The notes under the pieces are model-generated. The model did no database searches, was not told where the DNA came from, and saw only the letters and a list, made by a program, of their open reading frames with translations. From the NCBI GenBank assembly GCA_963974725.1, contig CAXBFC010000002.1, positions 1-54,595 of the forward strand: a stretch of DNA of 54,595 nucleotides. Direction: 5' to 3'. The number at the start of each line of letters is the position of its first letter. The first letter of the stretch is position 1. This DNA is from an uncultured bacterium. GTDB taxonomy: Bacteria; Planctomycetota; UBA1135; UBA2386. This document shows, piece after piece, positions 11,865 to 46,321 of the stretch. A program made the translations under genes and the position numbers.

Positions 11865-11913
11865 CCGTGCAACGGTGCATCCACGAAGCGACCCGCGGAC
11901 GTTGAGATTCGAG

Positions 11914-29464: not shown

Positions 29465-30532
29465 CTAGGCAGGCGTGCCGCCAAGCAAGCGTTCTGCCAC
29501 AGCGGGGCAATCCGACGCGCTTCGCGCATGGCCATCGGCACCAACGACCTGCCACAAATCATCGACCAGATTGAATGGTTGGCCACCGACGAGAATCGGA
29601 ATCGCCGCCGTCGCTGGGTGGGCTCGCAGCGAGGCAATCAGGTCCGCCGTTTGGCGCACGTAGAGCACGATGTTCGCAGACAGCGCGATCACGTCGCACC
29701 CAAAGTCGCGAGCTGCTTCTGCGATCGCCGTGGCAGGTGTGTTGGCGCCGAGCGAAATGACGGACCAGCCTCGCGCTTCAAAAGCCTGCGACACCAACTG
29801 GATGCCGAGAGCGTGCGTCTCGTTGCTAACGGTTGCCGTGATGACCTGGCGGCCATTGCCTTCCGTTCGCGGCGCCTGCGCACGCATCACGGTCAGAAGA
29901 GACGTGACAATGCCCGTGCAGTAGTGCTCTTCCGCGATGGTGACCTCACCCATCTGCCACATGCGCCCCATCTCTTTCTGCACACGATGCAACACGTGCT
30001 CGTAGAGCTCGGTGGGCGTGGCGCCCGCTTCGAATGCCGCGAGCACCAACTTCACAGCGTCTTGCTCGCGTCCTTCCAATACCGCGAGCAAGAACTGACG
30101 GGCCAGGCCGATGTGCGGCCCATCACCTTCGAGATAGCTAGCGGTCTCGGGCGGCGCTTCGGCAACTTGCTTGGCGGCTAATCGCACCATGGCACAAGCA
30201 CGAGCGGCGGCAGCTTCCGGCAGGCGCTCCTGCAGTTCGTCCGCCATGCACGCGAGGTTGTCCTGGATCGCGTCATCCCCAACTCCACGCGCGGCGCACA
30301 GCACCTTGACCCAACGCAGTTGCTCGGTGAGCAAGGCGATGCGATCGGCAGCCAGCGCTTCGGCCAGGTAGCCGAGCCGAACCTCGGTATCCATCACGAG
30401 ATCGGACTCGCCGGACCCGTAGGCGCGGACGGCTTCCGGATCCCGCGCCAACTGCCGTTCGACGGTGCCGCTAGCTAGAACCCTGGCCGAACGACAGATT
30501 ATGGCAGCGACGAATGATCCCTCTTCATGCAT
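29465..30532 (-). CDS. CarH-like cobalamin (B12)-binding sensor module without a DNA-binding domain
   Basis: MWQMGEVTIAEEH matches the Wx9EH signature of the CarH/LitR four-helix-bundle light-sensing domain. VITATVSNETHALGIQL is the (D/E)xHxxG lower-ligand loop, followed by a Rossmann B12-binding domain (CDVIALSANI, ILVGGQPF). The N-terminal roughly 135 aa are helical and have no MerR HTH. Confidence 0.75.
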   Translation of the reverse strand: MHEEGSFVAAIICRSARVLASGTVERQLARDPEAVRAYGSGESDLVMDTEVRLGYLAEALAADRIALLTEQLRWVKVLCAARGVGDDAIQDNLACMADELQERLPEAAAARACAMVRLAAKQVAEAPPETASYLEGDGPHIGLARQFLLAVLEGREQDAVKLVLAAFEAGATPTELYEHVLHRVQKEMGRMWQMGEVTIAEEHYCTGIVTSLLTVMRAQAPRTEGNGRQVITATVSNETHALGIQLVSQAFEARGWSVISLGANTPATAIAEAARDFGCDVIALSANIVLYVRQTADLIASLRAHPATAAIPILVGGQPFNLVDDLWQVVGADGHARSASDCPAVAERLLGGTPA

Positions 30533-30540
30533 GGGTTTTC

Positions 30541-31326
30541 CTACAGCGGCTTGGCTAACACGACGATCTGCTCGCGATCGGAAACGACCACTCCGCCGGG
30601 GGCTTCGACCGTCACCACAAACGCCTGTGCCTCGTGAACCACAACCTTGGGATCGATTGGGATGACCACCTCGGCCTGGCCGTTGGGCACGTTGAAGACG
30701 CCACCGTCGACAGGGTGCGCCGCGTTACGCTTCGCGTCGACGATCCAAAGTTGGTATTGATGCTGCGACGGGTCGTTGACCGGCAACCCACGAAAGCGCA
30801 TCGCGCCGCGCTGCGAAGGCCCGTGCCAAACCACGTCTCCTTCGGGTGCCCCTCCGGACCAACTCCAAACTGCGGCGTCACGCACTTGCAGCAACTCCTG
30901 CCGCAGCGCCTGCGGAGCGACCACTGATTGCGACGGAACGTTCGTCCACCACAGCACGGCCGACAACGTCAGCAGTGCGGCAGCAAGGATTGCGTTGGGC
31001 TGTGCCCACCACTTGGCCACACCCTCGACAAGCGGCGACGACGCCGAAGACGATGCCAACGATGGTCCCGACGATCGTTCCGACATAGGTCCCGACAATG
31101 GCGCCGCATCTCGCAAGGCGCGGAGCAAGCGCTCCGAGGGCCCACTAGGAATGGCCTGTTGCAACGCGATCGTGGCCACGGCCGCACTGTGTTCCCAACT
31201 GCTGTCTGGTTCGAGTTTCGCTTCGCAAAGTGCGTCCACTAGCTCTAGGCGAGCATTCTCGTCGAGACCCCAAATCGCATCGTCGGCCTGGAGTTCGTCC
31301 AGGCGCGTCATCGAAAAGGCACTCAT
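30541..31326 (-). CDS. anti-sigma factor, RskA-like (single TM, periplasmic RskA domain)
   Basis: The ATG overlaps the sigma stop (ATGA). The TM segment is ILAAALLTLSAVLWW. The C-terminal RskA block is HQYQLWIVDAKRNAAHPVDGGVF...FVVTVEAPGGV. There is no HxxxCxxC zinc motif in the N-terminal domain. Confidence 0.8.
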   Translation of the reverse strand: MSAFSMTRLDELQADDAIWGLDENARLELVDALCEAKLEPDSSWEHSAAVATIALQQAIPSGPSERLLRALRDAAPLSGPMSERSSGPSLASSSASSPLVEGVAKWWAQPNAILAAALLTLSAVLWWTNVPSQSVVAPQALRQELLQVRDAAVWSWSGGAPEGDVVWHGPSQRGAMRFRGLPVNDPSQHQYQLWIVDAKRNAAHPVDGGVFNVPNGQAEVVIPIDPKVVVHEAQAFVVTVEAPGGVVVSDREQIVVLAKPL

Positions 31327-31937
31327 GAGTCGACTCCCTGATCAGGAGTTCGCCGATCGGAGGATCGCCGCTCGGGGGAAGAGTGATCGGGAGATTCCGA
31401 AGTCTTGACTCCAAGTAGTTCACGCACGCGCATCAAGCCTCGTCGCGCATGGCTCTTGACCGTGCCCAAGGCCATCCCAGTCGAGTCGGAAATCTGCTGG
31501 TGAGAGCGCCCGTGGACCAGGGACAGCTCCAAGACTTCGCGTTGACTGGGCCGCAGCTCCTGCATCGCCCCAGACACCCGACGCACTTCGTCATCAAGCT
31601 CGAGCGTATCTGCCTGGGTTGCACCGACCAATTCCTGGTCATCTGTCAGTGACTGGGACGTGGGTGCCCGGCCACGCTTGCGATTGCGGTCGATCAAGCG
31701 CCGACGTGCCAGAGTCATGACGAACGTCATTGCCGAACCACGCTCGGGATCGAACCGATGCGCACTCTTCCAGAGGTCGACAAAAATGTCCTGTGTCGCG
31801 TCTTCGGCGTCGCTGTCGTTGCTCAGGTACCGTCGCGCCAAACTCCACACCGGCGGAGTAAACTGGCGCATGCAAGCTTCCACGGCCTCCGGCTTGCCCG
31901 CTGCTACGTCTGCCAGGATCTGGTCGGTTGCACTCAT
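31323..31937 (-). CDS. ECF-type RNA polymerase sigma-70 family factor
   Basis: Starts at ATG 31937 (MSATDQILADVAAG). Region 2 is EDATQDIFVDLWKSAHRFD. Region 4 is SQREVLELSLVHGRSHQQISDSTGMALGTVKSHARRGL. A short Ser/Pro/Arg-rich C-terminal tail follows. Confidence 0.9.
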   Translation of the reverse strand: MSATDQILADVAAGKPEAVEACMRQFTPPVWSLARRYLSNDSDAEDATQDIFVDLWKSAHRFDPERGSAMTFVMTLARRRLIDRNRKRGRAPTSQSLTDDQELVGATQADTLELDDEVRRVSGAMQELRPSQREVLELSLVHGRSHQQISDSTGMALGTVKSHARRGLMRVRELLGVKTSESPDHSSPERRSSDRRTPDQGVDS

Positions 31938-32033
31938 CTTCCGTTGTTGCGAACAATAATACGCGACTCGCCTGGACAAAGACGAGGATCGGTCGGCACC
32001 AACTATGACACAAGTAGCCATGGTGGTAACCGC

Positions 32034-33341
32034 CTATCTCCAAGTGAACGCACTGAGACCATCAAGTTCGCGGATCAGCACCTGATTGCCGTCCACCGCG
32101 AGGTGCGCCCAAGTTTCACTATCGGCGACTTCGATGACATCGAGCAGCTCGTATTCTTTGGTGTTGGCGGCGATGAGATAAAGCTCACCATCTTCGCTCA
32201 AGGCGAGGATCTGGTTGCCGTTGGCCACCAGCGACCAGTTCTCGTCGGCGATCGACGGCGACGTCCACTTGAGCTCGCCCGAGGGCATGTGCACGCAGCA
32301 GAAGCGCTTGCTACGCAAGTAAACGTAGGCGTGATCGTCAATGACTACGGGAGTCGACATGTATGCCTGCACCCGGTTGGTCCACTTTCTCTCCGAGGTC
32401 AACTTGCCGTCCTGCTGCGCGACGCCGTAGAGATGACCGCGGCCGCCGTAGGCCGACGTGAACACCGCATCACCAAACGGCAACGGTGTCAGGATGTTCA
32501 TGCCGCGGAAGGTCTTTACCGGGTGGGTCCACAAGACCTCGCCAGATGCCGGTTGCACCCCGTTCAAGGAAGTGCGCGTCTGCACGAGCAGATGATCCTC
32601 ACCAGCAAGCGTCGCGCGAACTGGTGACGAGAACGCGCCACCGTTCATCCCGCCCTCGTCCTTCATCGACAACCACCTGGTCTCGCCAGTTTGCTTGTCA
32701 AGCTTGACCAGGCCGGCGCCGGTCTGCACGTACACCGAGTCCTCATCAACGAGTGGCGAGCAAACGAATCCAAAGGATTCGCGGTTGGACTGGAAGCGCT
32801 CAGGAAAGTCGACGCGCCAGTTTTCCTTGCCGGTCTTCGCGTCGAGGGACACGAGCACGTCCAACATGCCAGCTACAAACAACGATTCGCCGTCGTATGC
32901 CGGCGTCGATCGAATCCACGAACCGTTGCGAGCTGCGAAGAAGGGCACACTCATGCTGCCATCCCATTTGACTTGCCAGATGATCTTACCGGAACTTCGG
33001 CTGGCGGCAGTGACCACCTCCGTCTTCTTGCCTTCGGTTGCCGTCGTAAAGACGAGGTCTGCGCTGACCACCGGGCCCGAGTAGCTCGGCCCCATCTCAA
33101 TCCGCCAGTCGCGCTTGAAGTTCTCGTTGTTGAGTCGCGCCGGCCAGACCGAGGCGGTGACGTGGCCCGATCGTTTCGGACCTCGCCACTGATTCCATTG
33201 GCCCGGGAAGGCCTGCACAGCGGCACCCGGTGAGGCGGCTTCCGGCACGGTGTCTTTTGGCGATGGCACGACGGGTGTGCCCTGCGCCAATAGAGCGGTC
33301 GGAACCAGCATCAAGCCGACGGTCAAAGCGACAGTTCTCAT
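32034..33341 (-). CDS. PQQ-like beta-propeller repeat protein (BamB-like fold), secreted
   Basis: The signal peptide is MRTVALTVGLMLVPTALLAQG. It has the typical WNQWRGPKRSGHV entry motif and repeated propeller blades. Confidence 0.75.
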   Translation of the reverse strand: MRTVALTVGLMLVPTALLAQGTPVVPSPKDTVPEAASPGAAVQAFPGQWNQWRGPKRSGHVTASVWPARLNNENFKRDWRIEMGPSYSGPVVSADLVFTTATEGKKTEVVTAASRSSGKIIWQVKWDGSMSVPFFAARNGSWIRSTPAYDGESLFVAGMLDVLVSLDAKTGKENWRVDFPERFQSNRESFGFVCSPLVDEDSVYVQTGAGLVKLDKQTGETRWLSMKDEGGMNGGAFSSPVRATLAGEDHLLVQTRTSLNGVQPASGEVLWTHPVKTFRGMNILTPLPFGDAVFTSAYGGRGHLYGVAQQDGKLTSERKWTNRVQAYMSTPVVIDDHAYVYLRSKRFCCVHMPSGELKWTSPSIADENWSLVANGNQILALSEDGELYLIAANTKEYELLDVIEVADSETWAHLAVDGNQVLIRELDGLSAFTWR

Positions 33342-33517
33342 CAAGGACTCCTGTGGGGTTCGCATATCGAGAGACTTCGCCCGTCACGACCGACTGGATG
33401 CACCCAACCTAATCCTCAGAATCCCGCGCGGGATTTCGAGATCGCAGTGCATCCAAGCTCCAGCCAGCGGCGAAATGCTCGTCGTCCAGATAACCACCCA
33501 TAACCCCCACTACAAAC

Positions 33518-34414
33518 ATGACCCGCTTCCCGATCATTGCCCTCTCCGCTCTCCTCGCCGCCCCAATCGTCGCCCAAGACTCGAAGGCTGACATCGTCGA
33601 CACCGCCGTCGCCGCCGGCTCATTCAAGACCCTCGCAGCAGCGCTCGGCGCCGCCAACCTGGTCGACACCCTGAAGGGCAAGGGCCCGTTCACGGTGTTT
33701 GCGCCGACCGACGCTGCGTTCGCGAACTTGCCGAAGGGCACCGTCGCCAACCTCCTGAAGAAGGAAAACCTGCCGACGCTGACCAACATCCTCACCTACC
33801 ACGTCGTCGCCGGCAACATGCCCGCGAAGAAGGTGCTGACGCAAAAGGGCCTGATCGCCCTCAACGGCCAACGCGCCCCGCTCTCGATGGTCAAGGCCAA
33901 TGCCTTCATCGCCGGCGCCCAAATCGTCAAGACCGACATCCACTGCTCCAACGGTGTGATCCACGTCATCGACGCGGTCATGATGCCGGCGACCAACGAC
34001 ATCGTCGACGTTGCCGCCAAGGCAGGCACCTTCAAGACGCTGCTCGCCGCCGCCAAGGCTGCTGGCCTCGTCGACACGCTGAAGGGCAAGGGCCCGCTGA
34101 CCGTGCTCGCCCCGACCGACGCCGCGTTCGCCAAGCTGCCGAAGGGCACCGTCGAGATGCTGCTCAAGCCTGAGAACAAGGCGAAGCTCGCAGCAGTCCT
34201 GACCTACCACGTCGTCGCTGGCCGCGCGTTCGCTGCTGATGTCGCCAAGGCCAAGACCATCAAGACCGTGCAAGGGAGCCCGATCACGATCACGGTCAAG
34301 GACGGCAAGGTCATGGCCAACACGGCCACGATTGTCGCCACCGACATCAACGCTTCGAACGGTGTTGTGCACGTGATCGACCAGGTCATCCTGCCGCCGA
34401 ACCCGAAGAACTAG
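33518..34414 (+). CDS. secreted protein with two fasciclin (FAS1) domains
   Basis: The blocks [21 protein letters not shown]...ILTYHVV...NGVIHVID appear twice. Confidence 0.9.
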
Positions 34415-35027: not shown

Positions 35028-35044
35028 GTGACTCGCGGCGCACA

Positions 35045-35121
35045 CCGCGCCGTAGTAACCGCGCCTTAGCGACCGCGCCGTAGTAACCGCGCCTTAGCAA
35101 CCGCGCCGTAGCAACCGCGCC
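35045..35121. repeat. about 5.5 tandem 14-bp units CCGCGCC(G/T)TAG(T/C)(A/G)A, organised as 28-bp super-units
   Basis: Units start at 35045, 35059, 35073, 35087 and 35101, with a degenerate one at 35115. The array begins 18 nt after the lipoprotein stop. Confidence 0.85.
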
Positions 35122-35326
35122 GCGTGATGCGTCGCCCACGCCGCACGATTGCGGTGACCGCATGCGAGGCACAGCGATCCCTCGTTCGCGCCCGCCGGAT
35201 CGCTGCCCGATCGCCCCGCGCATCAAGGATTGGCCACGATTGCTTGCCGCACGTGGAATTCACGCGCGCGCTGAATCCGCCAGCAGATGGCCAGCGAAAT
35301 GGGCTGCAACCCAAGCAATCTGAACC

Positions 35327-37798: not shown

Positions 37799-39373
37799 TC
37801 ACTCAGCCGGGGCAGGATCCGCGGGCGGTTCTCGCTTGGTCGGCTGGACTGGCTTGGTTGGCTGGGCTGGCTTGCTCGGCTGGGCTGACTTGGTGAGCTG
37901 CGATGCCGACGACTCCGCTGCCTTGCGGATGCCCCTTTGCATGCCGCGGAACACCAGGCCATGCAGTGGCAGGACGGCATACCAATAGGCAAGCCCAAGC
38001 AAACCGCGCGGTTTGAATCGTGCAGTCTGAAGCAGCTGGCACTTGGAGTGGTCCCCAGCAACTGGCTCGATCTCAAACGTCAAGGTCGCGATGCCCGGCA
38101 ACTTCATCTCGGCGTAAAGCTCCAGGCGACGCTCGGGCTCGGCCTTGGTCACGCGCCAGAAGTCGAGCGCGTCGCCATAGCCGACCCGTTCGGCGTCGCG
38201 TCTTCCCCGTCGCAGCCCAGGCCCGCCGACGAGACGGTCCATCCAGCCGCGCAAGCGCCACAGCCAGTCCGATGCATACCATCCATGGCCGCCACCAACT
38301 CGACAAACGGCTCGGTAGACCTCGGCGGCTGGGGCCTTGATCTCGATCGATCGTGGGTCCTCGAAGACCTTGCCGCCAGCCCAGTCTGGGTCGCCTGGCA
38401 TCTTGCCAGCATCCGACCAACTCGTTTCAACCGAGCCAGCTTCTTGGTGCCCGACTGCCAGCACGATGCTCTCGTAGACAGTCTGCAACTGCACCGGCAT
38501 CAAACTGTTGGCAACTCGATTGCGGCAGACGACTTCGTTCCGCAGGCCCTCGGCCAACGGCCGGGCGATCCGTGAACTGATGGGTGTCACCAGATGAATC
38601 CAGAGCGAACTCAACCTGGGCGTCAACACCGGTATGGGCAAGATCCAACGGCGTGGCAGCTTGAGGGCCTTCGCCACCATCTGGATCACGGCCTTGTAGG
38701 TCACCACCTCCGGACCTCCGATATCGAGGGTCTGGCCGATGGTTGCAGGCTGTGCGAGGCACTTGACCAAATAGCTCAACACGTCATCGACGCCAATCGG
38801 TTGGCACTTGGTGCTCACCCATCGCGGCGTGATCATGACAGGTAGACGCTCGACCAAGTAGCGCAGGATCTCGAACGACGCGGAGCCCGAACCGATGATC
38901 ATGGCGGCGCGCAGCACAGTCACCGGAACACTTCCCGAGGCGAGTTCGGTCTCGACATCGCGACGAGAACTCAGATGTTCGCTCAAACCTTCGCCAGTCT
39001 CTCCGAGACCGCCGAGGTAGATGATTTGTTCGATTGCCGCGTCCGTTGCTGATTCGGCAAAGGCACGCGCGATGCGGCGATCGACTTCGGCATACGCGGA
39101 GCCAGCTGCCAGCATCGAGTGCACCAGGAAGTAGGCAGCTCGGCAGCCGCGCAGCGCTGCCGTCGTCGCAATGCGATCTTCGACGTCGCACTTCACGATC
39201 TCGACGCGCTCGTCCGAGGCGAACGGACCATCGCCGAGCTTCTCCGGACTGCGGACGAGACACCGGACCCGGTAGCCAGCATCGAGCAGCCTCGAGACCA
39301 AACGACCTCCGATGTAGCCGGTGGCGCCGGTGACAGCGATTAGCCCCTCTGGAGAATCGTCCGCGGTTGCCAT
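37799..39373 (-). CDS. NAD(P)-binding SDR/NmrA-like protein fused to a DUF2867-like domain
   Basis: Starts at ATG 39373. It has the Rossmann motif VTGATGYIGGRLVSRLL. The C-terminal half is WRVTKAEPERRLELYAEMKLPG... (DUF2867-like, from memory), followed by a Pro/Lys-rich tail. Confidence 0.75.
   Translation of the reverse strand: MATADDSPEGLIAVTGATGYIGGRLVSRLLDAGYRVRCLVRSPEKLGDGPFASDERVEIVKCDVEDRIATTAALRGCRAAYFLVHSMLAAGSAYAEVDRRIARAFAESATDAAIEQIIYLGGLGETGEGLSEHLSSRRDVETELASGSVPVTVLRAAMIIGSGSASFEILRYLVERLPVMITPRWVSTKCQPIGVDDVLSYLVKCLAQPATIGQTLDIGGPEVVTYKAVIQMVAKALKLPRRWILPIPVLTPRLSSLWIHLVTPISSRIARPLAEGLRNEVVCRNRVANSLMPVQLQTVYESIVLAVGHQEAGSVETSWSDAGKMPGDPDWAGGKVFEDPRSIEIKAPAAEVYRAVCRVGGGHGWYASDWLWRLRGWMDRLVGGPGLRRGRRDAERVGYGDALDFWRVTKAEPERRLELYAEMKLPGIATLTFEIEPVAGDHSKCQLLQTARFKPRGLLGLAYWYAVLPLHGLVFRGMQRGIRKAAESSASQLTKSAQPSKPAQPTKPVQPTKREPPADPAPAE
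37832..37885. repeat. three tandem 18-bp units encoding (A/V)QP(S/T)K(P/R) at the 3' end of the SDR gene
   Basis: Units were read at 37832, 37850 and 37868. The protein tail is SAQPSKPAQPTKPVQPTKR. Confidence 0.75.
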
Positions 39374-39547
39374 GGTATTGTCGGGGCGCCTTGCGCCGTG
39401 CCTGGATGAGAGTGGTGGTACGGGCCTCGCGACCGCGCGACAGGCCTTCGCCAGATCGTAGGCTCCAGATGCAAGATCTTGTGGCCAATCACCTGCGCTG
39501 CGGCGGATGTTCGCATCCGAATCGCCGAACCGTGCGAAATCCCGGGT

Positions 39548-40087
39548 ATGCCAGTGATCGATTCCCAAGCTTGGACCGCCGACAACCTCAATGGCCGTCG
39601 CCTGGCGGCCCGCAACTTCTCAGACGTCGTCGGCAAAAAACCGACACTGCTGATCTTCTTGCGGCACCTGGGTTGAATCTTCACCCGAGAACTCGTGCAC
39701 GAGGTCGTGCACGCCACCCAGAGCCCCAACTTCCCCGAACCGCTGTTCATCCATCGCGCGTCCGTGGCAGAGGCCGAGATCTTCTTTGCGAAACGATTCG
39801 CGGGCGCTCGCGCGATCGCCGATGCCAACGGATCCTTGTTCGAGGCGTTCGGCCTCAACCGCGGCACTATCCTGCAGCTACTCGGACCGCGAGCACTCTG
39901 GCGTGGCCTGGTTGCACTACTGAAAGGCAACTTCGTTGGGCGACCGACTGGCAATGAGACGCAGATGCCCGGCGCCTTCCTGACGCGCGAGCGCGATATT
40001 CTATGGGAACATCGTGCACGGCACGCGGGCGACCAGCCAGATCTCGACGCGATGATGAAGTCCTTGGACGCTGCATCCGAAGCGTAG
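39548..40087 (+). CDS. Prx-like2 (AhpC/TSA_2) family peroxiredoxin-like protein with in-frame TGA at codon 43 (candidate selenocysteine)
   Basis: ORFs 39479-39676 and 39695-40087 share a frame and are separated only by the TGA at 39674-39676. The read-through gives KPTLLIFLRHLG-U-IFTRELV, which superimposes on the family motif FLRHxGCxFCRE with U at the first Cys. ATG 39548 gives a typical 179-aa length. Confidence 0.7.
39694..39713 (+). promoter_or_regulatory. SECIS-like hairpin downstream of TGA 39674
   Basis: CGUGCAC (39694-39700) pairs with GUGCACG (39707-39713). The loop GAGGUC contains GGU. The stem starts 17 nt after the UGA. Confidence 0.5.
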
Positions 40088-40092
40088 CTCGG

Positions 40093-41355
40093 CTAGTGGC
40101 GGGCCCGCTCGAAACGCAGGTGACAAACGCCAATGTGCCGCTCCAAGAAGCCGGCTTCGCAGTAGGCGAAGTAGAAGTCCCAAGCGCGCATCAGCGAGTC
40201 GTCTCCGCCCAGGGCAACCACCTGCTGACGTTTGGTCAGCCAAACCTGCCGCCACCGCCTGAGGGTTTCCGCGTAGTGATGGCCGAAGTCGACCATCTTC
40301 ACCAAGCGCAGATCCGTGTGCTCACTTGCAGCCCGAGCGATCGCGGTGACCGAAGGGATGAAGCTGCCCGGAAACACGTGGCGTTTGATGTAGTCGACCG
40401 AACGCAGCGCCGACTCATAGTGTTGGTCCGCGATCGTGATTGCCTGTAAGCCGAGGATGCCGCCTGGCTTCAATCGCGCAGCGCAGCACTTGAGGAAGTC
40501 GGGCAGGTAGCGGGCGCCAACGGCCTCGATCATCTCGCACGAGATGACCTTGTCGAAGGTGCCCTCGACATCGCGATAGTCCTGCTGCAATAGCTTGACG
40601 CGATGGCCAAGGCTCGCAGCCTGCACCCGTTCTGATGCCGTCTGGAATTGATTGGAGGAGATCGTCGTCGTGGTGACGTTCGCACCAAACGTGCCTGCTG
40701 CGGCAATCGCAAGGCTGCCCCAGCCAGTGCCGATCTCAAGCAGGTCCTCCCCCGGCGACAAGTCGACCAAGCGACACAATCGCTTCAGCTTCTCGGCCTG
40801 CGCATCCGCCAGACTTTGATTCGGGAACTCGAACCACGCGGAGGAATACGTCATCGACGGATCCAAGAACTGCGCGAACAAGTCGTCACTCAGATCGTAG
40901 TGATCGGCGATGTTCTTCCGGCTACCCTCGCGACTGTTTTGCCTGCGGTTGTAGCCAAGGCGCAGCAACAGCCGCCGCGGCAGCGACCACAGCGAACGAT
41001 CAACATCCATCAAGACATCGCGATCGCGCACCATCAAACGCAGCACGCCAACCAGATCGTCGGTGTCCCATTTGCCAGCGACGTAAGCCTCGCCGGCACC
41101 GACCGCGCCCGAAGCCGCGATCGCACTGTAGAACGCTGGATCGCGAACATCGATCTGTTGCACGCCAAGGGCGCCGCTGGCCGCGCCGACCTTTTCGATA
41201 CCCGAGTAGTCACTGACGGCAAGCGCACCGCTCTGCAACCCGGCTAGCCTTTTGAGAACTCGCGCGCGCAAGAACTTCTGCCAACCAGTAGCAGGTCGCG
41301 CCACCGCCCGCACCGGTGAGCCACTGCGAGGGGAAACAAGGATAGGGTTGCTCAT
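40093..41355 (-). CDS. cyclopropane-fatty-acyl-phospholipid synthase family SAM methyltransferase
   Basis: The start ATG 41355 overlaps the DUF1365 stop. The blocks are HYDLSDDLFAQFLDPSMTYSSAWF, the SAM motif LLEIGTGWGSLAIAAA, and YAETLRRWR. Confidence 0.85.
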   Translation of the reverse strand: MSNPILVSPRSGSPVRAVARPATGWQKFLRARVLKRLAGLQSGALAVSDYSGIEKVGAASGALGVQQIDVRDPAFYSAIAASGAVGAGEAYVAGKWDTDDLVGVLRLMVRDRDVLMDVDRSLWSLPRRLLLRLGYNRRQNSREGSRKNIADHYDLSDDLFAQFLDPSMTYSSAWFEFPNQSLADAQAEKLKRLCRLVDLSPGEDLLEIGTGWGSLAIAAAGTFGANVTTTTISSNQFQTASERVQAASLGHRVKLLQQDYRDVEGTFDKVISCEMIEAVGARYLPDFLKCCAARLKPGGILGLQAITIADQHYESALRSVDYIKRHVFPGSFIPSVTAIARAASEHTDLRLVKMVDFGHHYAETLRRWRQVWLTKRQQVVALGGDDSLMRAWDFYFAYCEAGFLERHIGVCHLRFERARH

Positions 41356-42134
41356 GTCGGAATTCGGCGACGTGGGTGAGAGAAGAACGGCGCACGGCGC
41401 AACCAAAGACGTAGCGCTTGCCAATGGATCGATGCGACGAACTGCATGCTGATCAAGGGATGCCGCAGCCAACTGCGAACCAGGGTTCGGGTTCGCCACG
41501 GCTGCTTGCTCATCACCAGCGTCGCATCAAACGCTTTGCCATCGCCGGCGTGGTTCTCCATGTGCACCAGCAACCGATTGCCGGGCGTTGAGAATCGCCA
41601 GATGTAGTCCTGCTCCATCGGCTGGAACGGACTGACGTGGAAGTCCTTGGCAAACCGAGCCGTGACCCGCCCGCGTTCGTCGGCCCGAAGCACGTAATGA
41701 TGCCGTTCGCGCCACGGCGTGTTGGTGATCTCCGCGAGCACCGCGACGAGCTGATCTTGGCCGTCAAAACAGTAGTAGAACGACACCGGGTTGAAGCCAT
41801 AGCCAAAGCAACGCAACGCCGTCAGCAAGCGCACCGCGCCATCGGGGCGAAACCCGAGTTGCTGCTCGACAGCATTGTGGACCGCCTCCCGCAACGGCGT
41901 GTCCTTGGGGCCGAAGTAGTCCGAACGACGAAACCTGACCGGTGCCGGGCGACGATCAGACCAGAACCACCGGCCCCGAAACGCTTGCTCGATCTCATCG
42001 ATATCGAGGTATGCGAGGTCGAGGTTGACGGTGAACGCACGGTCCACGGCATCAAAGCGACGATGCCGGACCGTGCCGCGGTAGATCCCGCTGTGGACCA
42101 CGCCGCTGCCGTTCGCAACGCCGCTAGCACTCAC
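41352..42134 (-). CDS. DUF1365 family protein
   Basis: The GTG at 42134 overlaps the stop of the upstream flavoprotein (GTGA). The blocks are GIYRGTVRHRRF...FTVNLDLAYLDIDE...RRSDYFGP. Confidence 0.8.
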   Translation of the reverse strand: MSASGVANGSGVVHSGIYRGTVRHRRFDAVDRAFTVNLDLAYLDIDEIEQAFRGRWFWSDRRPAPVRFRRSDYFGPKDTPLREAVHNAVEQQLGFRPDGAVRLLTALRCFGYGFNPVSFYYCFDGQDQLVAVLAEITNTPWRERHHYVLRADERGRVTARFAKDFHVSPFQPMEQDYIWRFSTPGNRLLVHMENHAGDGKAFDATLVMSKQPWRTRTLVRSWLRHPLISMQFVASIHWQALRLWLRRAPFFSHPRRRIPT

Positions 42135-43453
42135 AACGCCACTCCAAACGATGGTTTCGACACTCGTGACGCAACGCCAAGCCCATTGTCGATGCCGAAG
42201 TCGTTCGCGACGCGCAGCGCCGATTGCACGCCGTCTTCGTGGAAGCCAAAGCCACACCAGGCGCCACAGAACCAAACCCTGCCGGTGCCGCTCAATTCGG
42301 CAACCTGTGCCTGCGCTTGCACACAGCGCTCATCGAAAACTGGATGATCGTAAGAAAACCGCCGCAGCACCTTCGCAGGGTCGATCCTCGCCGAACTGTT
42401 CAAGCTCACGAGGTAGCGCTCCACTGTCTCGAGCCCCTGCAGCGTGTTCATGTCATACGTCACTGTGGCATGCTCGCTTGGACTGGCGGGCAAGCGATAA
42501 TTCCACGCCGACCAGGTCTTCCGACGGTTCGGCAGCAGACTGGTGTCGGTGTGCAGCACCACGTCGTTGGCTTGGTACGGGATCGCCGTCAGAACCGCAC
42601 GTTCGGCGTCCGAAGAATCGACCAACATTCGGGCCGCTTGGTCGCTATGGGTCGCCAACACCACGCCATCGAACACTTCCGGCTCACCGCCCTTAGTACG
42701 CACGGTGACCCCAGCCGCCTGGCGGCGGATCTCCACCACCGACGCGTTGAGCCGAATGCGATCCGAGAACGTGCGCGAAAGCGGGCCCAAGTAGCTTCGA
42801 GAGCCACCGACCACGGTGCGCCACTGCGGTCGGTTCTTCACCTGCAGCATGCCGTGATTGCGGAAGAACCGGATGAAGAACCGCGCCGGCATGGAGGACA
42901 AGACCTCGGGCTTCGCCGACCAGATCGCCGCCATCATCGGCAGCAAATACCAGCGCGCGAACGCACCTTCGAGACGAGCTTCGCGCAGCACTTCGCCGAG
43001 GGTTAGATCGCTGTCGAGATACGACTCCGCGAGGCGATGAAAGCGCGTGATGCCATGCAACATCGACCAGAACTTCGGGCGCAGTAGGTTGCGACGCTGC
43101 GCGAACAAGCCATCCACAGAGGAACCGCAGTATTCGACTCCTGAAGCCTCGCAGTGCATGCTGAAGCTCATGTCCGAATCGCGCAGGCCAACGCCCAACC
43201 GCGACATCAGAGCCAAGAACTCAGGGTAGGTGCGATCGTTGCAAACGATGAAGCCGGTATCCACCGCAACGGTGCCATCGCCTGTCTGGACGTCGACCGT
43301 GTGGGTATGGCCGCCGATTCTTTCATCCGCTTCAAACACGACCACATCGTGCTTGGTGGCCAGGCGCTCGGCGGCCAACAGCCCCGAAATGCCGGTGCCG
43401 ACCACCGCAAGGCGTTTGCGCCCATGCCCGAGCAATGCGGCGGCGCGGGTCAT
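42131..43453 (-). CDS. FAD-dependent oxidoreductase (amine-oxidase / phytoene-desaturase-like)
   Basis: It has the dinucleotide fold RLAVVGTGISGLLAAERL...VVVFEADERIGGHTHT and the C-terminal VWFCGAWCGFGFHEDG. Confidence 0.85.
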   Translation of the reverse strand: MTRAAALLGHGRKRLAVVGTGISGLLAAERLATKHDVVVFEADERIGGHTHTVDVQTGDGTVAVDTGFIVCNDRTYPEFLALMSRLGVGLRDSDMSFSMHCEASGVEYCGSSVDGLFAQRRNLLRPKFWSMLHGITRFHRLAESYLDSDLTLGEVLREARLEGAFARWYLLPMMAAIWSAKPEVLSSMPARFFIRFFRNHGMLQVKNRPQWRTVVGGSRSYLGPLSRTFSDRIRLNASVVEIRRQAAGVTVRTKGGEPEVFDGVVLATHSDQAARMLVDSSDAERAVLTAIPYQANDVVLHTDTSLLPNRRKTWSAWNYRLPASPSEHATVTYDMNTLQGLETVERYLVSLNSSARIDPAKVLRRFSYDHPVFDERCVQAQAQVAELSGTGRVWFCGAWCGFGFHEDGVQSALRVANDFGIDNGLGVASRVSKPSFGVAL

Positions 43454-44379
43454 CTACGAACTCGCTCCGGAAGTGGTCGAATGCCAGACACAAGACCCAC
43501 CAACGACATCGCGCGCAGCACGTAGTAGGTGATATCAATCTGCCACCAGCGGAAACCCTGCTGCACCGAACCGGGATGCCAGTGGTGGTTGTTGTGCCAA
43601 CCCTCGCCGAGCGTCAGGACTGCAAGCCAGAACGAGTTGCGGCTGTGATCCCGGGTCGGCCAATCACGCCGTCCGAACAGATGCGCCAACGTGTTGATCG
43701 ACGCCGTGACGTGGAAGAGCACCGTCGTCGAAATGCAGAAACCCCAAACCACCATCTGCGCCATGCTGGTGCCAAGCTCGGGATAGAATCGCTGCAACGC
43801 CCCGCCTAGCGCTGCTAGCGCAACCAGCAGCACGGCGGGAACGACTCGATCGTGACGATCCAGCCAAACGAGTTCGGGATATTTCGCAAAGTCCCTGACT
43901 TGCGACATGTCGGTCTGCCAGGCGCCGCGAGTCACAAACCAACCGACCTGCGCCCACCAGAAACTGTGCGTGTGCGGCGAATGCCGGTCGCCCTCACCGT
44001 CCGAAGTCCGGTGGTGATTACGATGGTGGGCCGCCCACCATAGTGCGCCTCGCTGCACAGCCGTAGCGCCGAGCAGGGCTCCAAGAAACTGCATCGTCCG
44101 GGACATCGTGTAACTGCGATGGCCGAAGTAGCGATGATAGAACGCCGTCACCGCAAACATCCGGATCAGGTAGAGCGCAACCGCCACCATCACCGCAACC
44201 GGGCTCCAACCCACGACGAAGACCAACAGGCAGCCCGCCTGCATGGCCAGCCACGGCGCAATACGCCGCCACTCGATTTGACGGTCGTCCGATGAGGCGA
44301 CCGGGACCCCGAGAGTGCTAGTTGTCACGTATGAAGCTCCACTTAGGAAAGTTCGCGATTTTAGACCCGCTGGATGCAC
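43450..44379 (-). CDS. membrane fatty-acid (acyl-CoA/acyl-lipid) desaturase
   Basis: It has three His boxes: HRYFGH, HHRNHHRTSD and HNNHHWH. An alternative start is the GTG at 44328, which is preceded by GGAG. Confidence 0.85.
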   Translation of the reverse strand: MHPAGLKSRTFLSGASYVTTSTLGVPVASSDDRQIEWRRIAPWLAMQAGCLLVFVVGWSPVAVMVAVALYLIRMFAVTAFYHRYFGHRSYTMSRTMQFLGALLGATAVQRGALWWAAHHRNHHRTSDGEGDRHSPHTHSFWWAQVGWFVTRGAWQTDMSQVRDFAKYPELVWLDRHDRVVPAVLLVALAALGGALQRFYPELGTSMAQMVVWGFCISTTVLFHVTASINTLAHLFGRRDWPTRDHSRNSFWLAVLTLGEGWHNNHHWHPGSVQQGFRWWQIDITYYVLRAMSLVGLVSGIRPLPERVRR

Positions 44380-44435
44380 AAACTCGCATCCGTTGACTAT
44401 CCCAGGCGAACCCTACACTAGGAAACGTTCCGACA

Positions 44436-45257
44436 ATGAACCTGCTCGAACTTGCTGCGCCCCTGATGCTCTGGGCCTGGTCCACGCTGGCGGCACTCTT
44501 CGCCGTGCTGTGGCTGGTCCAGCTGCGCAGCAAGAAAGCCACCTCGGTCGACCTCGCCTGGGCAGCGTCCATCGGCATGGTCGCTGTGGTCGCCGCGATT
44601 GTAGCAACCGGCAGCGGGCCACAGCGCCTGCTGGCGGCGGTTCTGGCTGGCTCCTGGAGCGCGAGGCTCAGCTGGCACTTGCTGGTCGACCGCGTCCAGA
44701 CCGACAAAGCCGAAGACGGCCGCTATCAAACGCTGCGCCGGCTGCTCGGCAAACGTGAAGCCGTCGGATTCTTCTTCGTCTACCAACTTCAGGCACTACT
44801 GGCCGTCGGCTTGGCGACGCCATTCGTGCTGCTCGCATACTCGTCCGAGCTGACGATCGCGCCGGTGCAATCCGGCGGCGTCGCGCTGGTGATCGTCAGC
44901 CAGCTGTTCGTCGCCACCGCCGACCGACAACGGGCCGAGCACCGGGCCAATCCAAGCATGCGCGGCACGACGTGCCGCAGCGGCCTCTGGCGCTACAGCC
45001 GTCACCCCAACTACTTCTTCGAATGGCTGACTTGGTGTGGGTTCGGCATTGCCCAGCTCCCCGCACTCGGCTGGTTGGCTGCGATTGCACCACTCGCAAT
45101 GTGGCTCTCGATCCGCATCTTCACCGGCGTGCCATTCACGGAAAAGCGTGCGCTGGTTTCGCGCGGTGATGACGGCCGACGCTACATGGCGGAGACCAAC
45201 GAGTTCTTCCCTGGGCCGCCGCCACAAACCCTTCCGACACCCTCCACGCAATCATGA
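44436..45257 (+). CDS. DUF1295 family membrane protein (steroid-5-alpha-reductase / ICMT-like fold)
   Basis: The product is multi-TM and carries the signature GLWRYSRHPNYFFEWLTW. Confidence 0.8.
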   Translation: MNLLELAAPLMLWAWSTLAALFAVLWLVQLRSKKATSVDLAWAASIGMVAVVAAIVATGSGPQRLLAAVLAGSWSARLSWHLLVDRVQTDKAEDGRYQTLRRLLGKREAVGFFFVYQLQALLAVGLATPFVLLAYSSELTIAPVQSGGVALVIVSQLFVATADRQRAEHRANPSMRGTTCRSGLWRYSRHPNYFFEWLTWCGFGIAQLPALGWLAAIAPLAMWLSIRIFTGVPFTEKRALVSRGDDGRRYMAETNEFFPGPPPQTLPTPSTQS

Positions 45258-46321
45258 GTAAAGTGATCGAACGCTGCCTCGAACGCGGCCTTCTCCCGGA
45301 CACCATCGTTCGCGCCGGCATCCGTCGGCTGTTGCGCAAGCGTCTGCGCAGCGAGATGGCTCACGACCCCGAAATCTCTGCGCGCCGACTGAGCGAGTGG
45401 ATTCGCCAGTGTGACACCAGCGTCATCGCCGTGGCGACGGATGCGGCAAACCAGCAGCACTACGAAGTCCCGGCAGCGTTCTTCCAAGCCGTTCTCGGCA
45501 AGTACCGCAAATACAGCTGCGGGCTCTGGAACGCCAAAGCCATGACCCTCGATGACGCGGAAGCGGCCATGCTTGCCAAAACCTGTGAGCGAGCGGGCAT
45601 CGAAGATGGCATGCGCGTCCTGGACCTCGGCTGCGGCTGGGGATCGATGTCGCTGTGGGTCGCGGAGCACTATCCCAACTGTCACGTCGTTGGCGTCAGC
45701 AACTCTGCGAGCCAACGCGAGTCGATCCTTGCGAATGCCAAGGATCGCGGCTTGACCAATGTCGAAATCGTCACCGCCGACGTCAACGAGCTTGAGCTGC
45801 CAGAAGCGAAAGAACAGCCCTTCGATCGCATCGTCTCGATCGAGATGATGGAGCACACGCGCAACTGGCGACAACTACTCGAACGCGCCGCTGGCTGGCT
45901 GCACCCCGATGGCCGGATGTTCGTGCACGTGTTCACTCATCGCTCCGTTGGCTACGAGTTCGTGACGCGCGGTGACGACGACTGGATGGCGCGCCACTTC
46001 TTTACTGGCGGCCAAATGCCAGCGGACTCACAGCTACTTCACTTCCAAGACCACCTGCAGGTTGAGTCGCACTGGCGTGTCAGCGGCCGGCACTACCAAC
46101 GGACGGCCGAGGCGTGGCTGCGCAATCTCGACAAGCACCGCGATGAGGCGACCGCCAGCCTGCGGCGCGTCTACGGCGAAGGCGCCGCCAAGATGACCAA
46201 CCTGTGGCGCGTCTTCTTCATGTCCTGCGCCGAACTGTGGGGCTTTGACAACGGCCGTGAATGGTTGGTGTCCCACTACTTGATGCGACCGCGAACGGGT
46301 GCAAGTCGGGCGAGCAACTAA
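45254..46321 (+). CDS. second CFA-synthase-family SAM methyltransferase
   Basis: It has an ATGA overlap with DUF1295. The blocks are QQHYEVPAAFFQAVLGKYRKYSCGLW, the SAM motif VLDLGCGWGSMSLWVAE, and YQRTAEAW. Confidence 0.85.
   Translation: MSKVIERCLERGLLPDTIVRAGIRRLLRKRLRSEMAHDPEISARRLSEWIRQCDTSVIAVATDAANQQHYEVPAAFFQAVLGKYRKYSCGLWNAKAMTLDDAEAAMLAKTCERAGIEDGMRVLDLGCGWGSMSLWVAEHYPNCHVVGVSNSASQRESILANAKDRGLTNVEIVTADVNELELPEAKEQPFDRIVSIEMMEHTRNWRQLLERAAGWLHPDGRMFVHVFTHRSVGYEFVTRGDDDWMARHFFTGGQMPADSQLLHFQDHLQVESHWRVSGRHYQRTAEAWLRNLDKHRDEATASLRRVYGEGAAKMTNLWRVFFMSCAELWGFDNGREWLVSHYLMRPRTGASRASN

Follow-up and report, generated by a model that had tools for sequence, protein, structure and literature searches.

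Can a cobalamin-dependent light sensor be wired to an ECF sigma factor through the structure of an operon? The question is raised by a stretch of 54,595 nucleotides from an uncultured member of the Planctomycetota (contig CAXBFC010000002.1; the whole stretch is called here the window), for which a preliminary description had proposed that a sigma gene, an anti-sigma gene and a gene for a B12-binding protein form one unit on the minus strand.

Organisation of the sigma/anti-sigma/B12 unit

All three open reading frames were found, tightly packed and with the coordinates claimed for them (Table 1). The anti-sigma frame overlaps the stop codon of the sigma gene by ATGA, and its own stop is followed after 8 nt (GAAAACCC) by the start of the B12 gene, so that the overlap and the gap described earlier are both seen in the sequence. 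The sigma reading frame spans 31323..32021, and alignment of the N-termini of orthologues identified the ATG at 31937, the start given before, as the true one. Within the three-gene unit, a simple consensus scan detected neither promoter-like nor terminator-like sites, and the reading of the unit as an operon stands. Directly 5' of the sigma gene, 96 nt from its start, lies a gene for a secreted beta-propeller protein, which occupies the same position in 7 related loci and with which the operon of the window clade probably begins.

Table 1. Features of the window discussed in the text
Feature	Position	Strand	Basis or remark
Photocobilin-type photoreceptor candidate gene	29465..30532	-	355 aa; Pfam, PDB search, AF2, Foldseek
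Rossmann B12-binding domain	29516-29848 (residues 229-339)	-	Pfam
His240, predicted lower axial cobalt ligand, in E-T-H-A-L-G	29813..29815	-	aligns with 8j2x, 8jbs and CarH His ligand
Four-helix bundle	29876-30112 (residues 141-219)	-	Pfam
W192-x9-E202-H203 motif, Q193 after Trp	29924..29959	-	four-helix bundle; sequence
Photoglobin (bilin-binding) domain, predicted	30158-30532 (residues 1-125)	-	profile search, Foldseek
RskA-type anti-sigma gene	30541..31326	-	261 aa; RskA_C, ATGA overlap
Anti-sigma periplasmic RskA_C domain	30544-30942	-	Pfam
Anti-sigma transmembrane helix, single	30943-31014 (residues ~105-128)	-	hydrophobic stretch
Anti-sigma cytoplasmic N-terminal domain	31087-31326 (residues 1-80)	-	aligns with orthologous anti-sigmas
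ECF sigma gene, SigK-like	31323..31937	-	204 aa; Pfam, alignment-set start
Secreted PQQ/BamB-like beta-propeller gene	32034..33365	-	Pfam PQQ_2 2.8e-35
TGGATGCAC, divergent twin	33395..33403	+	5' of fasciclin gene
TGGATGCAC, candidate promoter element (tentative -35 box)	33447..33455	-	5' of propeller-sigma operon
Gene for two-fasciclin-domain protein, candidate regulon member	33518..34414	+	Pfam Fasciclin 6.5e-75
Furan-fatty-acid-like lipid cluster, candidate sigma output	37799..46321	.	Pfam
TGGATGCAC	44371..44379	+	5' of DUF1295 and CMAS genes

The sigma factor contains sigma-2 and sigma-4 regions only (Pfam Sigma70_r2, 8.9e-20; Sigma70_r4_2, 5e-12) and scores 89 bits against TIGR02937, for which the cut-off is 42.9. 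The best NCBIfam family is SigK (PRK09646), at 130 bits below the cut-off of 226, and the best solved relatives are RpoE of R. sphaeroides (2q1z, 1.5e-21) and SigK of M. tuberculosis (4nqw, 6.5e-18). Alignment with 4nqw indicated that the conserved Cys pair of SigK is missing, the region-4 Cys positions being occupied by Ala and Glu. The protein is thus designated SigK-like, its membership of the SigK subfamily (ECF19/18) being unproven.

Regarding the anti-sigma factor, RskA_C was detected over residues 114-246 with 39.1 bits (Pfam gathering score 29.4), and a Ser-rich linker separates the N-terminal domain from the transmembrane helix. The whole sequence contains no HxxxCxxC and a single Cys (C34), which bears out the reported lack of the zinc motif. 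The conclusion formerly drawn from it, that the input is undefined, is weak, as RskA-type proteins own a periplasmic RskA_C domain and, to our knowledge, HxxxCxxC is never present in them. The domain retained here could provide a second, envelope-side input. The protein reaches 42.5 bits against NCBIfam 'antisigma' NF052375 (cut-off 100), and a profile of 11 anti-sigma N-domains matched no solved anti-sigma, 4nqw chain B included. Homology within the family is clear: the window N-domain aligns both with orthologous anti-sigmas and with small soluble reading frames of related loci.

A predicted photocobilin-type photoreceptor

The third protein is publicly annotated as 'methanogenic corrinoid protein MtbC1' and might therefore be an ordinary methyltransferase-type corrinoid protein placed fortuitously beside sigma genes. 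Its top NCBIfam E-values are indeed those of MtgC (1.4e-16) and pyl_corrinoid (2.6e-16), CarH being slightly worse (9.9e-14). However, the scores against MtbC/MtgC/MtaC-type families are 46-61 bits where the family cut-offs are 215-370, Pfam analysis of the neighbours revealed no methyltransferase partner gene nearby, the protein carries a Wx9EH motif and a photoglobin domain (see below), and its linkage to sigma recurs in 25 genomes. The fortuitous corrinoid protein is on this evidence extremely improbable. Beyond the Pfam matches to B12-binding_2 (1e-12) and B12-binding (3.5e-19), a sequence search of the PDB identified as closest solved relatives the photocobilins 8j2y, 8j2w and 8j2x (E 4e-23 to 3e-19), together with the light-responsive CtMerR domain 8jbs (1e-21); methyltransferase corrinoid proteins and methionine synthase rank behind them. 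This ranking agrees with the preliminary description, which had taken the B12 domain to be of the photoreceptor type and not of the methyltransferase or mutase type.

By contrast, the N-terminal domain of about 135 aa, described as an unrelated helical domain in place of the MerR-type one, can be assigned. Its profile matched the bilin domains of 8j2w, 8j2y and 8j2x (E 1e-6 to 3e-6) and allophycocyanin beta (2e-6), and PF00502 was matched in 6 of 22 family members. In AF2 models of the protein (pLDDT 94.7 and 93.4), Foldseek aligned the B12 part with 8jbs, 8j2w and CarH, and the N-domain with allophycocyanins and the biliverdin-binding smURFP at TM 0.75-0.80. Pfam gave no MerR or HTH match, and the N-terminus has, according to Foldseek, a globin fold. 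On the basis of these profiles and models, the first 135 aa are assigned to the photoglobins, bilin-binding domains that resemble phycobiliproteins. The claim of a CarH-type module on an unrelated domain consequently holds for the light-sensing B12 part only: as predicted here, the protein is a photocobilin-type two-chromophore photoreceptor and not a CarH minus its DNA-binding domain. Its probable cofactors are vitamin B12 and a bilin, and their binding and a response to light would be expected of it.

Both motifs on which the earlier assignment was based, Wx9EH and the His-ligand loop, are intact in the window protein (GRMW192-x9-E202H203 and E238-T-H240-A-L-G243) and nearly invariant among 49 relatives. 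W192, H240 and G189 are present in 49/49, E202 and H203 each in 48/49, and Q193 in 46/49. The SignatureFinder signature of light-responsive cobalamin-binding domains consists of four elements, GxxW, EH, GxxH and GxxxP (PMC11796333), and the role of the Wx9EH residues is given in PMC10979010 and PMC11796333. The first element reads G189-R-M-W192 and the last G262-A-N-T-P266, with G262 kept in 49/49 and P266 in 48/49 relatives. The third reads N237-E-T-H240 in the window clade, Gly being found in 40/49 relatives; this Gly touches the corrin via its main chain in CtMerR, and its replacement by Asn may be tolerated. The residue matching His132 of TtCarH, which takes part in the bis-His light state, is Gln (Q193), as it is in the photocobilin SasPcob. 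In an ungapped profile alignment, with the SasPcob numbering offset verified on Trp61, Glu71-His72 and His108, D48 and W74 fall on Asp270 and Trp296 of SasPcob, both named biliverdin contacts. W74 is invariant; bilin binding may not be universal, since D48 is Asp or Glu in just 32/49 relatives.

Linkage of photoreceptor and sigma genes in relatives

The relatives of the photoreceptor family all come from metagenome-assembled genomes. Among the 43 assessable species-level genomes, the photoreceptor gene adjoins the orthologous sigma gene in 25, and in 22 of these 25 the sigma gene lies 5' on the same strand, often with overlaps or gaps of less than 10 nt. An ECF sigma gene is the commonest conserved neighbour of the photoreceptor gene (26 loci), and 18/43 family members have no sigma gene beside it. 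Three layouts were observed: sigma-RskA-B12, sigma followed by a soluble anti-sigma stub of 63-88 aa and then B12, and sigma with B12 immediately after it. In two loci (L121 and L124) the order is permuted to B12-sigma-mini anti-sigma with a 4-nt overlap. Across the genomes with sigma and B12 genes, the anti-sigma is a full RskA in 7, absent in 12 and a stub in others; the stubs are homologues of the N-terminal domain of RskA (HMM E 4.7e-7, 4.2e-6 and 5e-3). Conservation of the triad, on which the preliminary description had staked its proposal, was thus found in the window clade, the pair of sigma and B12 genes being much wider.

The clades of linked sigma factors match those of the photoreceptors, and the linkage covers deep clades of both trees. 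Sigma and photoreceptor distances are correlated (Mantel r 0.74, reached in 0/2000 permutations), as would also be the case for any two vertically inherited genes. Seen from the sigma side, most SigK-like sigma/RskA pairs are without a B12 gene, which was located near 9/80 sigma relatives, or 9 of the ~33 having enough flanking DNA. These results show that linkage of sigma and photoreceptor is conserved and co-inherited, and a functional coupling of the two appears well supported by sequence comparison. It should be noted that synteny alone looks the same whether the photoreceptor regulates the sigma factor or is a co-expressed product.

A possible light-gated ECF switch

From the synteny, we infer with a probability of roughly 0.5 that a SigK-like sigma factor, an RskA-type anti-sigma factor and a cytoplasmic photocobilin-type sensor together make up an ECF switch that is gated by light and serves in photo-oxidative stress. 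In the dark, the photoreceptor with bound AdoCbl would adopt a given conformation or oligomeric state. Illumination with green light, or with red light via the bilin, would break the Co-C bond and alter this state, a behaviour shown for SasPcob among the photocobilins. The photoreceptor would then bind differently to the anti-sigma domain in the cytoplasm, or to sigma itself, shifting the amount of free sigma. Free sigma would transcribe the operon that encodes it, along with a set of genes for photo-oxidative stress. The members of this set would be, in the window, the genes for fasciclin proteins and for furan-fatty-acid-like lipids; photolyase would be included in relatives. The protein-protein contact, its sign and the regulon are predictions of this scheme.

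SigK is inhibited by the N-terminal fragment of RskA alone, and natural stubs of ~80 aa are functional (PMC7509140). A cytoplasmic stub is unable to sense the envelope, so that a further input is required. We tentatively suggest, at somewhat less than even odds, that the photocobilin-type protein is itself the light-controlled regulator of the ECF sigma factor, as an anti-anti-sigma where RskA or a mini-RskA is present and as a direct anti-sigma or activator where only sigma and B12 occur.

Alternatively, the photoreceptor could be a co-expressed output: the sigma factor would answer another signal (RskA proteolysis, singlet oxygen) and drive the photocobilin gene, whose product would control a different target by protein contact or act as a tetrapyrrole-binding protective protein. 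Regulon members are often found downstream in ECF operons, control of enzymes by way of protein-protein interactions has been described for photocobilins (PMC10979010), and both the family members that work with no sigma gene beside them and the periplasmic sensor domain kept by the window anti-sigma would fit such an output. Yet the pair survives reduction of the anti-sigma to a cytoplasmic stub or its loss, leaving the photoreceptor as the sole sensor-like protein of the unit, and it also persists in deep clades of both trees and when the order permutes to B12-sigma-stub with overlaps kept. We consider the output explanation unlikely.

Comparison with known systems

Shared by the window protein and the photocobilins (SasPcob 8J2W/8J2X, AbDPcob 8J2Y; Zhang et al. 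2024, PMC10979010) are the CarH-like AdoCbl domain, Wx9EH, the ExH His ligand and the Gln after Trp and, as also in photoglobins, the phycobiliprotein-like bilin domain with its Asp and Trp contacts. The domain order is reversed here with respect to the solved photocobilins; placement of the photoglobin before or after the B12 domain has been noted (PMC10979010; Schneider et al. 2021, PMC8717448). The partner conserved in the present loci is an ECF sigma factor, with or without an RskA-type anti-sigma; the two papers make no mention of this and name GGDEF, STAS/SpoIIE, kinases and HTH domains.

CarH/LitR repressors possess the same light-sensing B12 module and motifs. The window protein differs from them by the lack of a MerR DNA-binding domain, by Gln for His132 and by its extra bilin domain, and its output would presumably pass through the sigma/anti-sigma pair instead of operator binding. 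The control that LitR exerts over LitS, an ECF sigma of Streptomyces, is known only at the level of transcription. AerR/PpaA likewise bind B12, have no DNA-binding domain and act by binding a transcription regulator; by contrast, their partner is the repressor CrtJ/PpsR and they have no photoglobin domain.

Of the sigma systems, RpoE-ChrR (ECF11), which mediates the singlet-oxygen response of Rhodobacter, includes the best solved relative of the window sigma, and genes of its regulon type also lie near the present module (the furan-fatty-acid-like cluster in the window, photolyase in relatives). The anti-sigma is here of the RskA type and not the zinc/cupin protein ChrR; in Rhodobacter, singlet oxygen signals by way of ChrR turnover, and the operon is without a photoreceptor protein. 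SigK-RskA of mycobacteria and Yersinia (ECF18/ECF19) shows the same sigma family, an RskA_C anti-sigma directly downstream and fasciclin genes alongside. The window differs by a third, photoreceptor gene, by a sigma below the SigK cut-off and devoid of the Cys pair, and by its Planctomycetota hosts.

Several other routes lead from light to a sigma factor: YtvA-stressosome-sigmaB, LOV kinase-PhyR-NepR-EcfG and CarQ-CarR all free a sigma from its anti-sigma. The BphP-AlgB-DimA-MucA-AlgU route also ends in release of an alternative sigma from an anti-sigma (PMC12780092). Light is sensed in these routes by flavin, protoporphyrin or bacteriophytochrome proteins and passed on indirectly, through cascades of phosphorylation, proteolysis or a microprotein; none is known to have a B12/bilin protein encoded within the sigma/anti-sigma operon. 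In keeping with the earlier statement that the arrangement was not known as characterised, the literature searched describes no ECF sigma/anti-sigma pair to which a B12 or photoglobin sensor is coupled. The roles established for B12 photoreceptors are those of DNA-binding repressors (CarH, LitR), anti-repressors (AerR) and, recently, enzyme-controlling photocobilins; should the photocobilin-type protein itself regulate the sigma factor in response to light, it would be the first of the B12/bilin photoreceptors to have a sigma factor as its target.

Such a role would further point to light or photo-oxidative stress as an input to the SigK/RskA family, whose activating signal is explicitly called unknown (PMC7509140). 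In this family, natural truncated RskA stubs of the kind found here go with cysteine-less sigmas (PMC7509140). In mycobacteria, the SigK regulon is made up of two fasciclin proteins, MPT70 and MPT83, the orthologues of which are light-induced in M. kansasii (PMC9861118). For the signal of the SigK/RskA family, the module therefore supplies a concrete hypothesis that can be tested. The three natural layouts (membrane anti-sigma, soluble mini anti-sigma, none) each predict a different contact and so offer a ready-made dissection of the mechanism. Recurrence of the pairing in dozens of species points to uncharacterised light switching of genes, and a compact sigma and photoreceptor pair answering green and red light would be an attractive orthogonal optogenetic transcription switch.

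Neighbouring genes and candidate regulon

Fasciclin genes are found in the neighbourhood of the SigK-like sigma family in 29 loci. The lipid cluster of the window encodes SDR+DUF2867, CMAS, DUF1365, FAD amine-oxidase-like, fatty-acid desaturase, DUF1295 and second CMAS-like proteins, and its domain content makes it a candidate furan-fatty-acid-like cluster; the furan fatty acids of Rhodobacter are made by UfaM, UfaD and UfaO (DUF1365) under sigmaE-ChrR (PMC7380195, PMC6852236). A class II photolyase gene is located directly 5' of the sigma gene in L017, with a 4-nt overlap, and in L021, and nearby in L013, L121 and L124. SOUL haem-binding genes lie beside the module in the Pirellulaceae clade (7 loci).

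The neighbours bear on another explanation, in which the protein senses the availability of cobalamin, bilin or haem, or redox, and not light, and partners the sigma/anti-sigma pair in a ligand-dependent way, much like AerR/PpaA. B12-binding regulators without a DNA-binding domain exist (AerR, PpaA), some of them redox-responsive according to PMC10734443, and the SOUL genes as well as the altered GxxH of the window clade would agree with such a role. Against it, hardly any variation is seen in the adenosyl-pocket residues (Trp, Glu-His) that mark a domain as light-responsive, every one of the nearest characterised relatives is photoactive, and the neighbours that recur are photolyase and singlet-oxygen-type genes. 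Ligand or redox sensing is on balance quite improbable, and the light-gated switch remains our preferred reading.

The preliminary description had suggested looking upstream of the lipid cluster at 37-46 kb for a promoter motif of the sigma factor. The 9-mer TGGATGCAC was found there, before the operon and before the fasciclin gene. A promoter dyad common to the sigma genes was not detected upstream of them in 23 loci. The window contains 4 exact copies of the 9-mer (0.67 expected; 0/100 shuffles reach 4), all intergenic and each pointing to a downstream gene. Near the copy in the lipid cluster, GGATGCG on the opposite strand faces the desaturase/UfaD-like/DUF1365/CMAS operon. In related loci, GGATGCA occurs 5' of fasciclin genes in 7/28 (0.57 expected) and is weakly enriched 5' of sigma genes (6/109, with 1.9 expected).

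Organisation of the sigma factor operon

The G+C content is about 62% across the whole window. The preliminary description had reported a compact minus-strand unit composed of an ECF sigma gene, an RskA-type anti-sigma gene and a gene encoding a B12-binding protein. The three ORFs, the ATGA overlap shared by the sigma and anti-sigma genes, the start of the B12 gene 8 nt past the anti-sigma stop and the motifs quoted for its product were all found in the window. Alignment with 25 orthologues places the sigma start at the ATG at position 31937. A simple scan detected neither a sigma-70-like promoter nor an intrinsic-terminator-like site within the three-gene unit. Pfam assigned Sigma70_r2 and Sigma70_r4_2 to the sigma factor, RskA_C (exceeding the gathering score) to the anti-sigma factor, and B12-binding_2 and B12-binding to the third protein. 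The anti-sigma factor carries a single hydrophobic helix (residues 105-128 approximately) and, as had been described, lacks the HxxxCxxC motif, with one cysteine in total. No solved anti-sigma domain was found to match a profile built from the anti-sigma N-domains.

Coordinates of the features discussed in the text (window positions unless a related locus, L, is named)
Feature	Position	Strand	Remarks
B12 protein ORF	29465..30532	-	ORF call
Anti-sigma ORF	30541..31326	-	ORF call
Sigma ORF	31323..32021	-	ORF call
TGTG(C/T)CATAGT block	~32000-32012	-	~75 nt upstream of sigma start
Secreted PQQ/BamB-like propeller gene	32034..33365	-	directly upstream of sigma
Fasciclin gene	33518-34414		flanks sigma operon
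CIA30+fasciclin fusion gene	35327-37087		flanks sigma operon
Lipid-modification cluster	37799-46321		6 kb from sigma unit; Pfam
TGGATGCAC	11875-11883	-	faces DNA-methylase-like ORF
TGGATGCAC	33395-33403	+	faces fasciclin gene
TGGATGCAC	33447-33455	-	faces propeller gene, probable head of sigma operon
TGGATGCAC	44371-44379	+	faces DUF1295 and CMAS
Palindrome CTCAGAATCCCGC/GCGGGATTTCGAG	33415-33440		near-perfect
Tandem repeat	35044-35122		28-nt unit, 2.8 copies
Squalene-hopene-cyclase-like/TED-repeat gene	25745-27091		secreted product
tRNA (uracil-5)-methyltransferase-like gene	27141-28418		
Class II CPD photolyase	L017 3800-5227		overlaps sigma by 4 nt
Class II CPD photolyase	L021 3632-5140		
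SOUL haem-binding gene	L044 4378-5118		immediately upstream of sigma-photoreceptor pair

The third protein is a probable photocobilin-type receptor

When the 355-residue third protein was searched against all solved structures, the photocobilins 8j2y, 8j2w and 8j2x (E 4e-23 to 3e-19) and the light-responsive domain of CtMerR (8jbs, E 1.3e-21) were recovered, followed by methyltransferase corrinoid proteins (E 1e-14 and weaker), CarH (E 1e-9) and, weaker than CarH, methionine synthase. A methyltransferase-type B12 domain, which had been named as the reading that would undo the light-sensing assignment, was rejected, the protein scoring far under the cut-offs of the NCBIfam MtgC, MtbC and CarH models. 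For the same reason, the labels used in public records, 'methanogenic corrinoid protein MtbC1' and 'MerR family ... light-induced transcriptional regulator', are over-annotations. W192, H240, G189, G262 and W74 are invariant in 49 relatives and E202, H203 and P266 are each retained in 48 of them. Three of the four elements of the published light-response signature (GxxW, EH, GxxH and GxxxP; PMC11796333) are present; within GxxH the histidine is invariant and the glycine is replaced by asparagine in the window clade. The residue following the tryptophan is glutamine, as in the photocobilin SasPcob, whereas CarH has at this position the histidine that gives its bis-His light state. The third protein is probably of the B12 photoreceptor type.

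The N-terminal domain had been regarded as an unrelated helical domain, a view that has to be abandoned. Pfam gave no useful match with the window domain by itself, and PF00502 was reached by six of 22 family members. A profile of the 22 N-domains matched the C-terminal biliverdin-binding domains of three photocobilin structures (E 1e-6 to 3e-6), allophycocyanin beta (2e-6) and then dozens of phycobiliproteins. The AF2 model of the domain (pLDDT 93.4) can be overlaid on allophycocyanins and on smURFP, which binds biliverdin, at TM values of 0.75-0.80 and an rmsd of about 2 A. With the full-length model (pLDDT 94.7, pTM 0.90) Foldseek aligned the B12 half and nothing else, since the domains come in a different order from that in photocobilins. 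In the ungapped profile alignment, D48 and the invariant W74 fall on Asp270 and Trp296 of SasPcob, the two biliverdin contacts named for that protein (PMC10979010); the SasPcob numbering offset was verified via Trp61, Glu71-His72 and His108. The N-terminal domain is a photoglobin (the family of PMC8717448) and the protein a candidate photocobilin-type receptor whose bilin domain precedes the B12 part; PMC10979010 and PMC8717448 both note that this arrangement exists.

The sigma-photoreceptor pair is conserved and co-inherited

A scan with one genome per species yielded 59 loci, to which the loci of five metagenomic relatives were added; ORFs were called in each and searched with the window proteins. 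In 43 genomes both the complete two-domain protein and the DNA upstream of it were visible; an orthologous ECF sigma gene was adjacent in 25 of these, and the photoreceptor had no sigma gene beside it in the other 18. Loss of the triad from relatives had been proposed as evidence against the module; the triad was found in seven genomes (sigma, RskA, photoreceptor; type A), with 64-76% identity in the window clade and 40-43% in more distant members. Type B loci (three genomes plus L007) carry a 63-88-aa ORF between sigma and photoreceptor, and in type C loci (12 genomes) the photoreceptor follows sigma directly, with overlaps or 3-71-nt gaps. In a fourth layout, sigma/RskA lie on the opposite strand (three genomes). 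The type B small ORFs can be aligned over their full length with the cytoplasmic RskA N-domains, and an HMM built from type A domains alone detects them (E 4.7e-7, 4.2e-6 and 5e-3). No small anti-sigma-like ORF was present in type C loci. Unsupervised clustering of all neighbours ranked sigma first (26 loci), followed by fasciclin (14), RskA (11), SDR+DUF2867 (8) and the PQQ propeller (7).

The same locus groups form the same clades in neighbour-joining trees of the photoreceptors and of the sigma factors, sigma/RskA pairs devoid of a B12 gene falling into separate clades of the latter. Pairwise distances of the two proteins are correlated (Mantel r 0.74, a value reached by 0 of 2000 permutations). 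In view of the matching trees and this correlation, the reading that the two genes are neighbours by chance was rejected. A reverse census starting from sigma recovered 80 relatives in metagenome contigs (43-56% identity), the majority of them plain sigma/RskA pairs; the photoreceptor accompanied nine, in two of which (L121 and L124) the photoreceptor gene came first, followed by sigma and a mini anti-sigma gene, with a 4-nt overlap. From the census and the trees, the module is thus an old and specific subset of the SigK-like family rather than a family-wide feature.

A possible cytoplasmic light input to the sigma factor

Photocobilins photolyse AdoCbl by green light and, via biliverdin, by red light; their quaternary structure changes and they act via protein contacts (PMC10979010). 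As for the partner, the cytoplasmic N-domain of RskA alone suffices to inhibit SigK, naturally occurring stubs of about 80 aa remain functional, and the activating signal of the SigK/RskA family is stated as unknown (PMC7509140). The sigma factor and the photocobilin-type protein form a conserved, co-inherited pair in which the anti-sigma factor can be complete, cut down to a cytoplasmic stub or absent. This arrangement suggests that the photoreceptor would feed a cytoplasmic light input to sigma, binding the anti-sigma domain or, where no anti-sigma factor is encoded, sigma itself. The RskA_C domain of the window protein could contribute an additional, envelope-side input. The main alternative casts the photoreceptor as a co-expressed member of the regulon with a different target; the stub and no-anti-sigma layouts argue against it, since in them the unit contains no sensor besides the photoreceptor. 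Functional coupling of the photoreceptor to sigma is probable, and we give the proposed post-translational switch, with the photoreceptor acting on the anti-sigma factor or on sigma, a probability of about one half.

The photoreceptor and the sigma/anti-sigma parts each belong to known families. Light is known to reach sigma factors through other sensors, as with YtvA, LOV-PhyR and CarQRS. A further route is BphP-DimA-MucA-AlgU (PMC12780092). Neither the photoglobin, photocobilin and SignatureFinder papers nor the main text of the ECF-reclassification paper mention an ECF sigma/anti-sigma unit that includes a B12 or photoglobin protein, and full-text literature searches returned none; an unremarked listing of a B12 neighbour in the supplementary tables of the reclassification is possible.

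Genes surrounding the module

For every linked sigma factor SigK was the best-scoring model, yet under its cut-off; among solved structures, the closest relatives are the Rhodobacter singlet-oxygen sigma factor RpoE and M. tuberculosis SigK, whose cysteine pair is missing in the window sigma. Directly upstream of sigma in L017 and L021 is a class II CPD photolyase gene (TIGR00591, E 1e-95 to 1e-106), heading a unit of sigma, mini anti-sigma and photoreceptor; such a gene is also found near the module in L013, L121 and L124. The lipid-modification cluster of the window encodes SDR+DUF2867, a CMAS methylase, DUF1365, a UfaD-like protein of the FAD amine-oxidase/phytoene-desaturase type, a fatty-acid desaturase, DUF1295 and a second CMAS-like methylase. 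At the family level, these match UfaM, UfaD and UfaO (DUF1365), enzymes of furan-fatty-acid synthesis that belong to the sigmaE-ChrR singlet-oxygen regulon (PMC7380195, PMC6852236); the likeness to this Rhodobacter set is one of shared Pfam families. MPT70 and MPT83, both fasciclin proteins, make up the mycobacterial SigK regulon, and light induces their M. kansasii orthologues (PMC9861118); the SigK-like sigma of the window likewise adjoins two fasciclin genes.

In the Pirellulaceae clade, a SOUL haem-binding gene immediately precedes the sigma-photoreceptor pair (L044, L047, L051, L052, L054, L115 and L138), and its product may have a bearing on the supply of tetrapyrroles or bilins. Downstream of the locus in the window lie the gene for the secreted squalene-hopene-cyclase-like/TED-repeat protein and the tRNA methyltransferase-like gene, a neighbour conserved within the window clade.

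Candidate promoter elements

Four copies of the 9-mer TGGATGCAC are present in the window, where 0.67 would be expected; 0 of 100 shuffles reached this number. All copies are intergenic and oriented toward the next gene. In 7 of 28 related loci (0.57 expected), GGATGCA precedes a fasciclin gene. Since its enrichment upstream of sigma genes was weak, we suggest only tentatively, as a lead, that TGGATGCAC/GGATGCA may be the -35 box of this sigma factor. Attempts to define a consistent -10 element beside GGATGCA or TGGATGCAC were unsuccessful, and a search for dyads (4-mer, N14-20, 4-mer) upstream of the sigma genes of 23 loci gave nothing exceeding shuffles. TGATCC upstream of the window sigma was dropped as an RpoE-type -35 box, being located within the propeller coding end and not conserved.

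The palindrome CTCAGAATCCCGC/GCGGGATTTCGAG lies midway between two divergent TGGATGCAC copies and might represent an operator or -10 regions that overlap. The TGTG(C/T)CATAGT block, conserved in the window clade, sits in the 96 nt that separate the propeller gene from sigma and is similar to an extended -10 element. Finally, the unit of the tandem repeat upstream of the CIA30+fasciclin gene is made of two 14-nt half-units, ACCGCGCCGTAGTA/ACCGCGCCTTAGCA.
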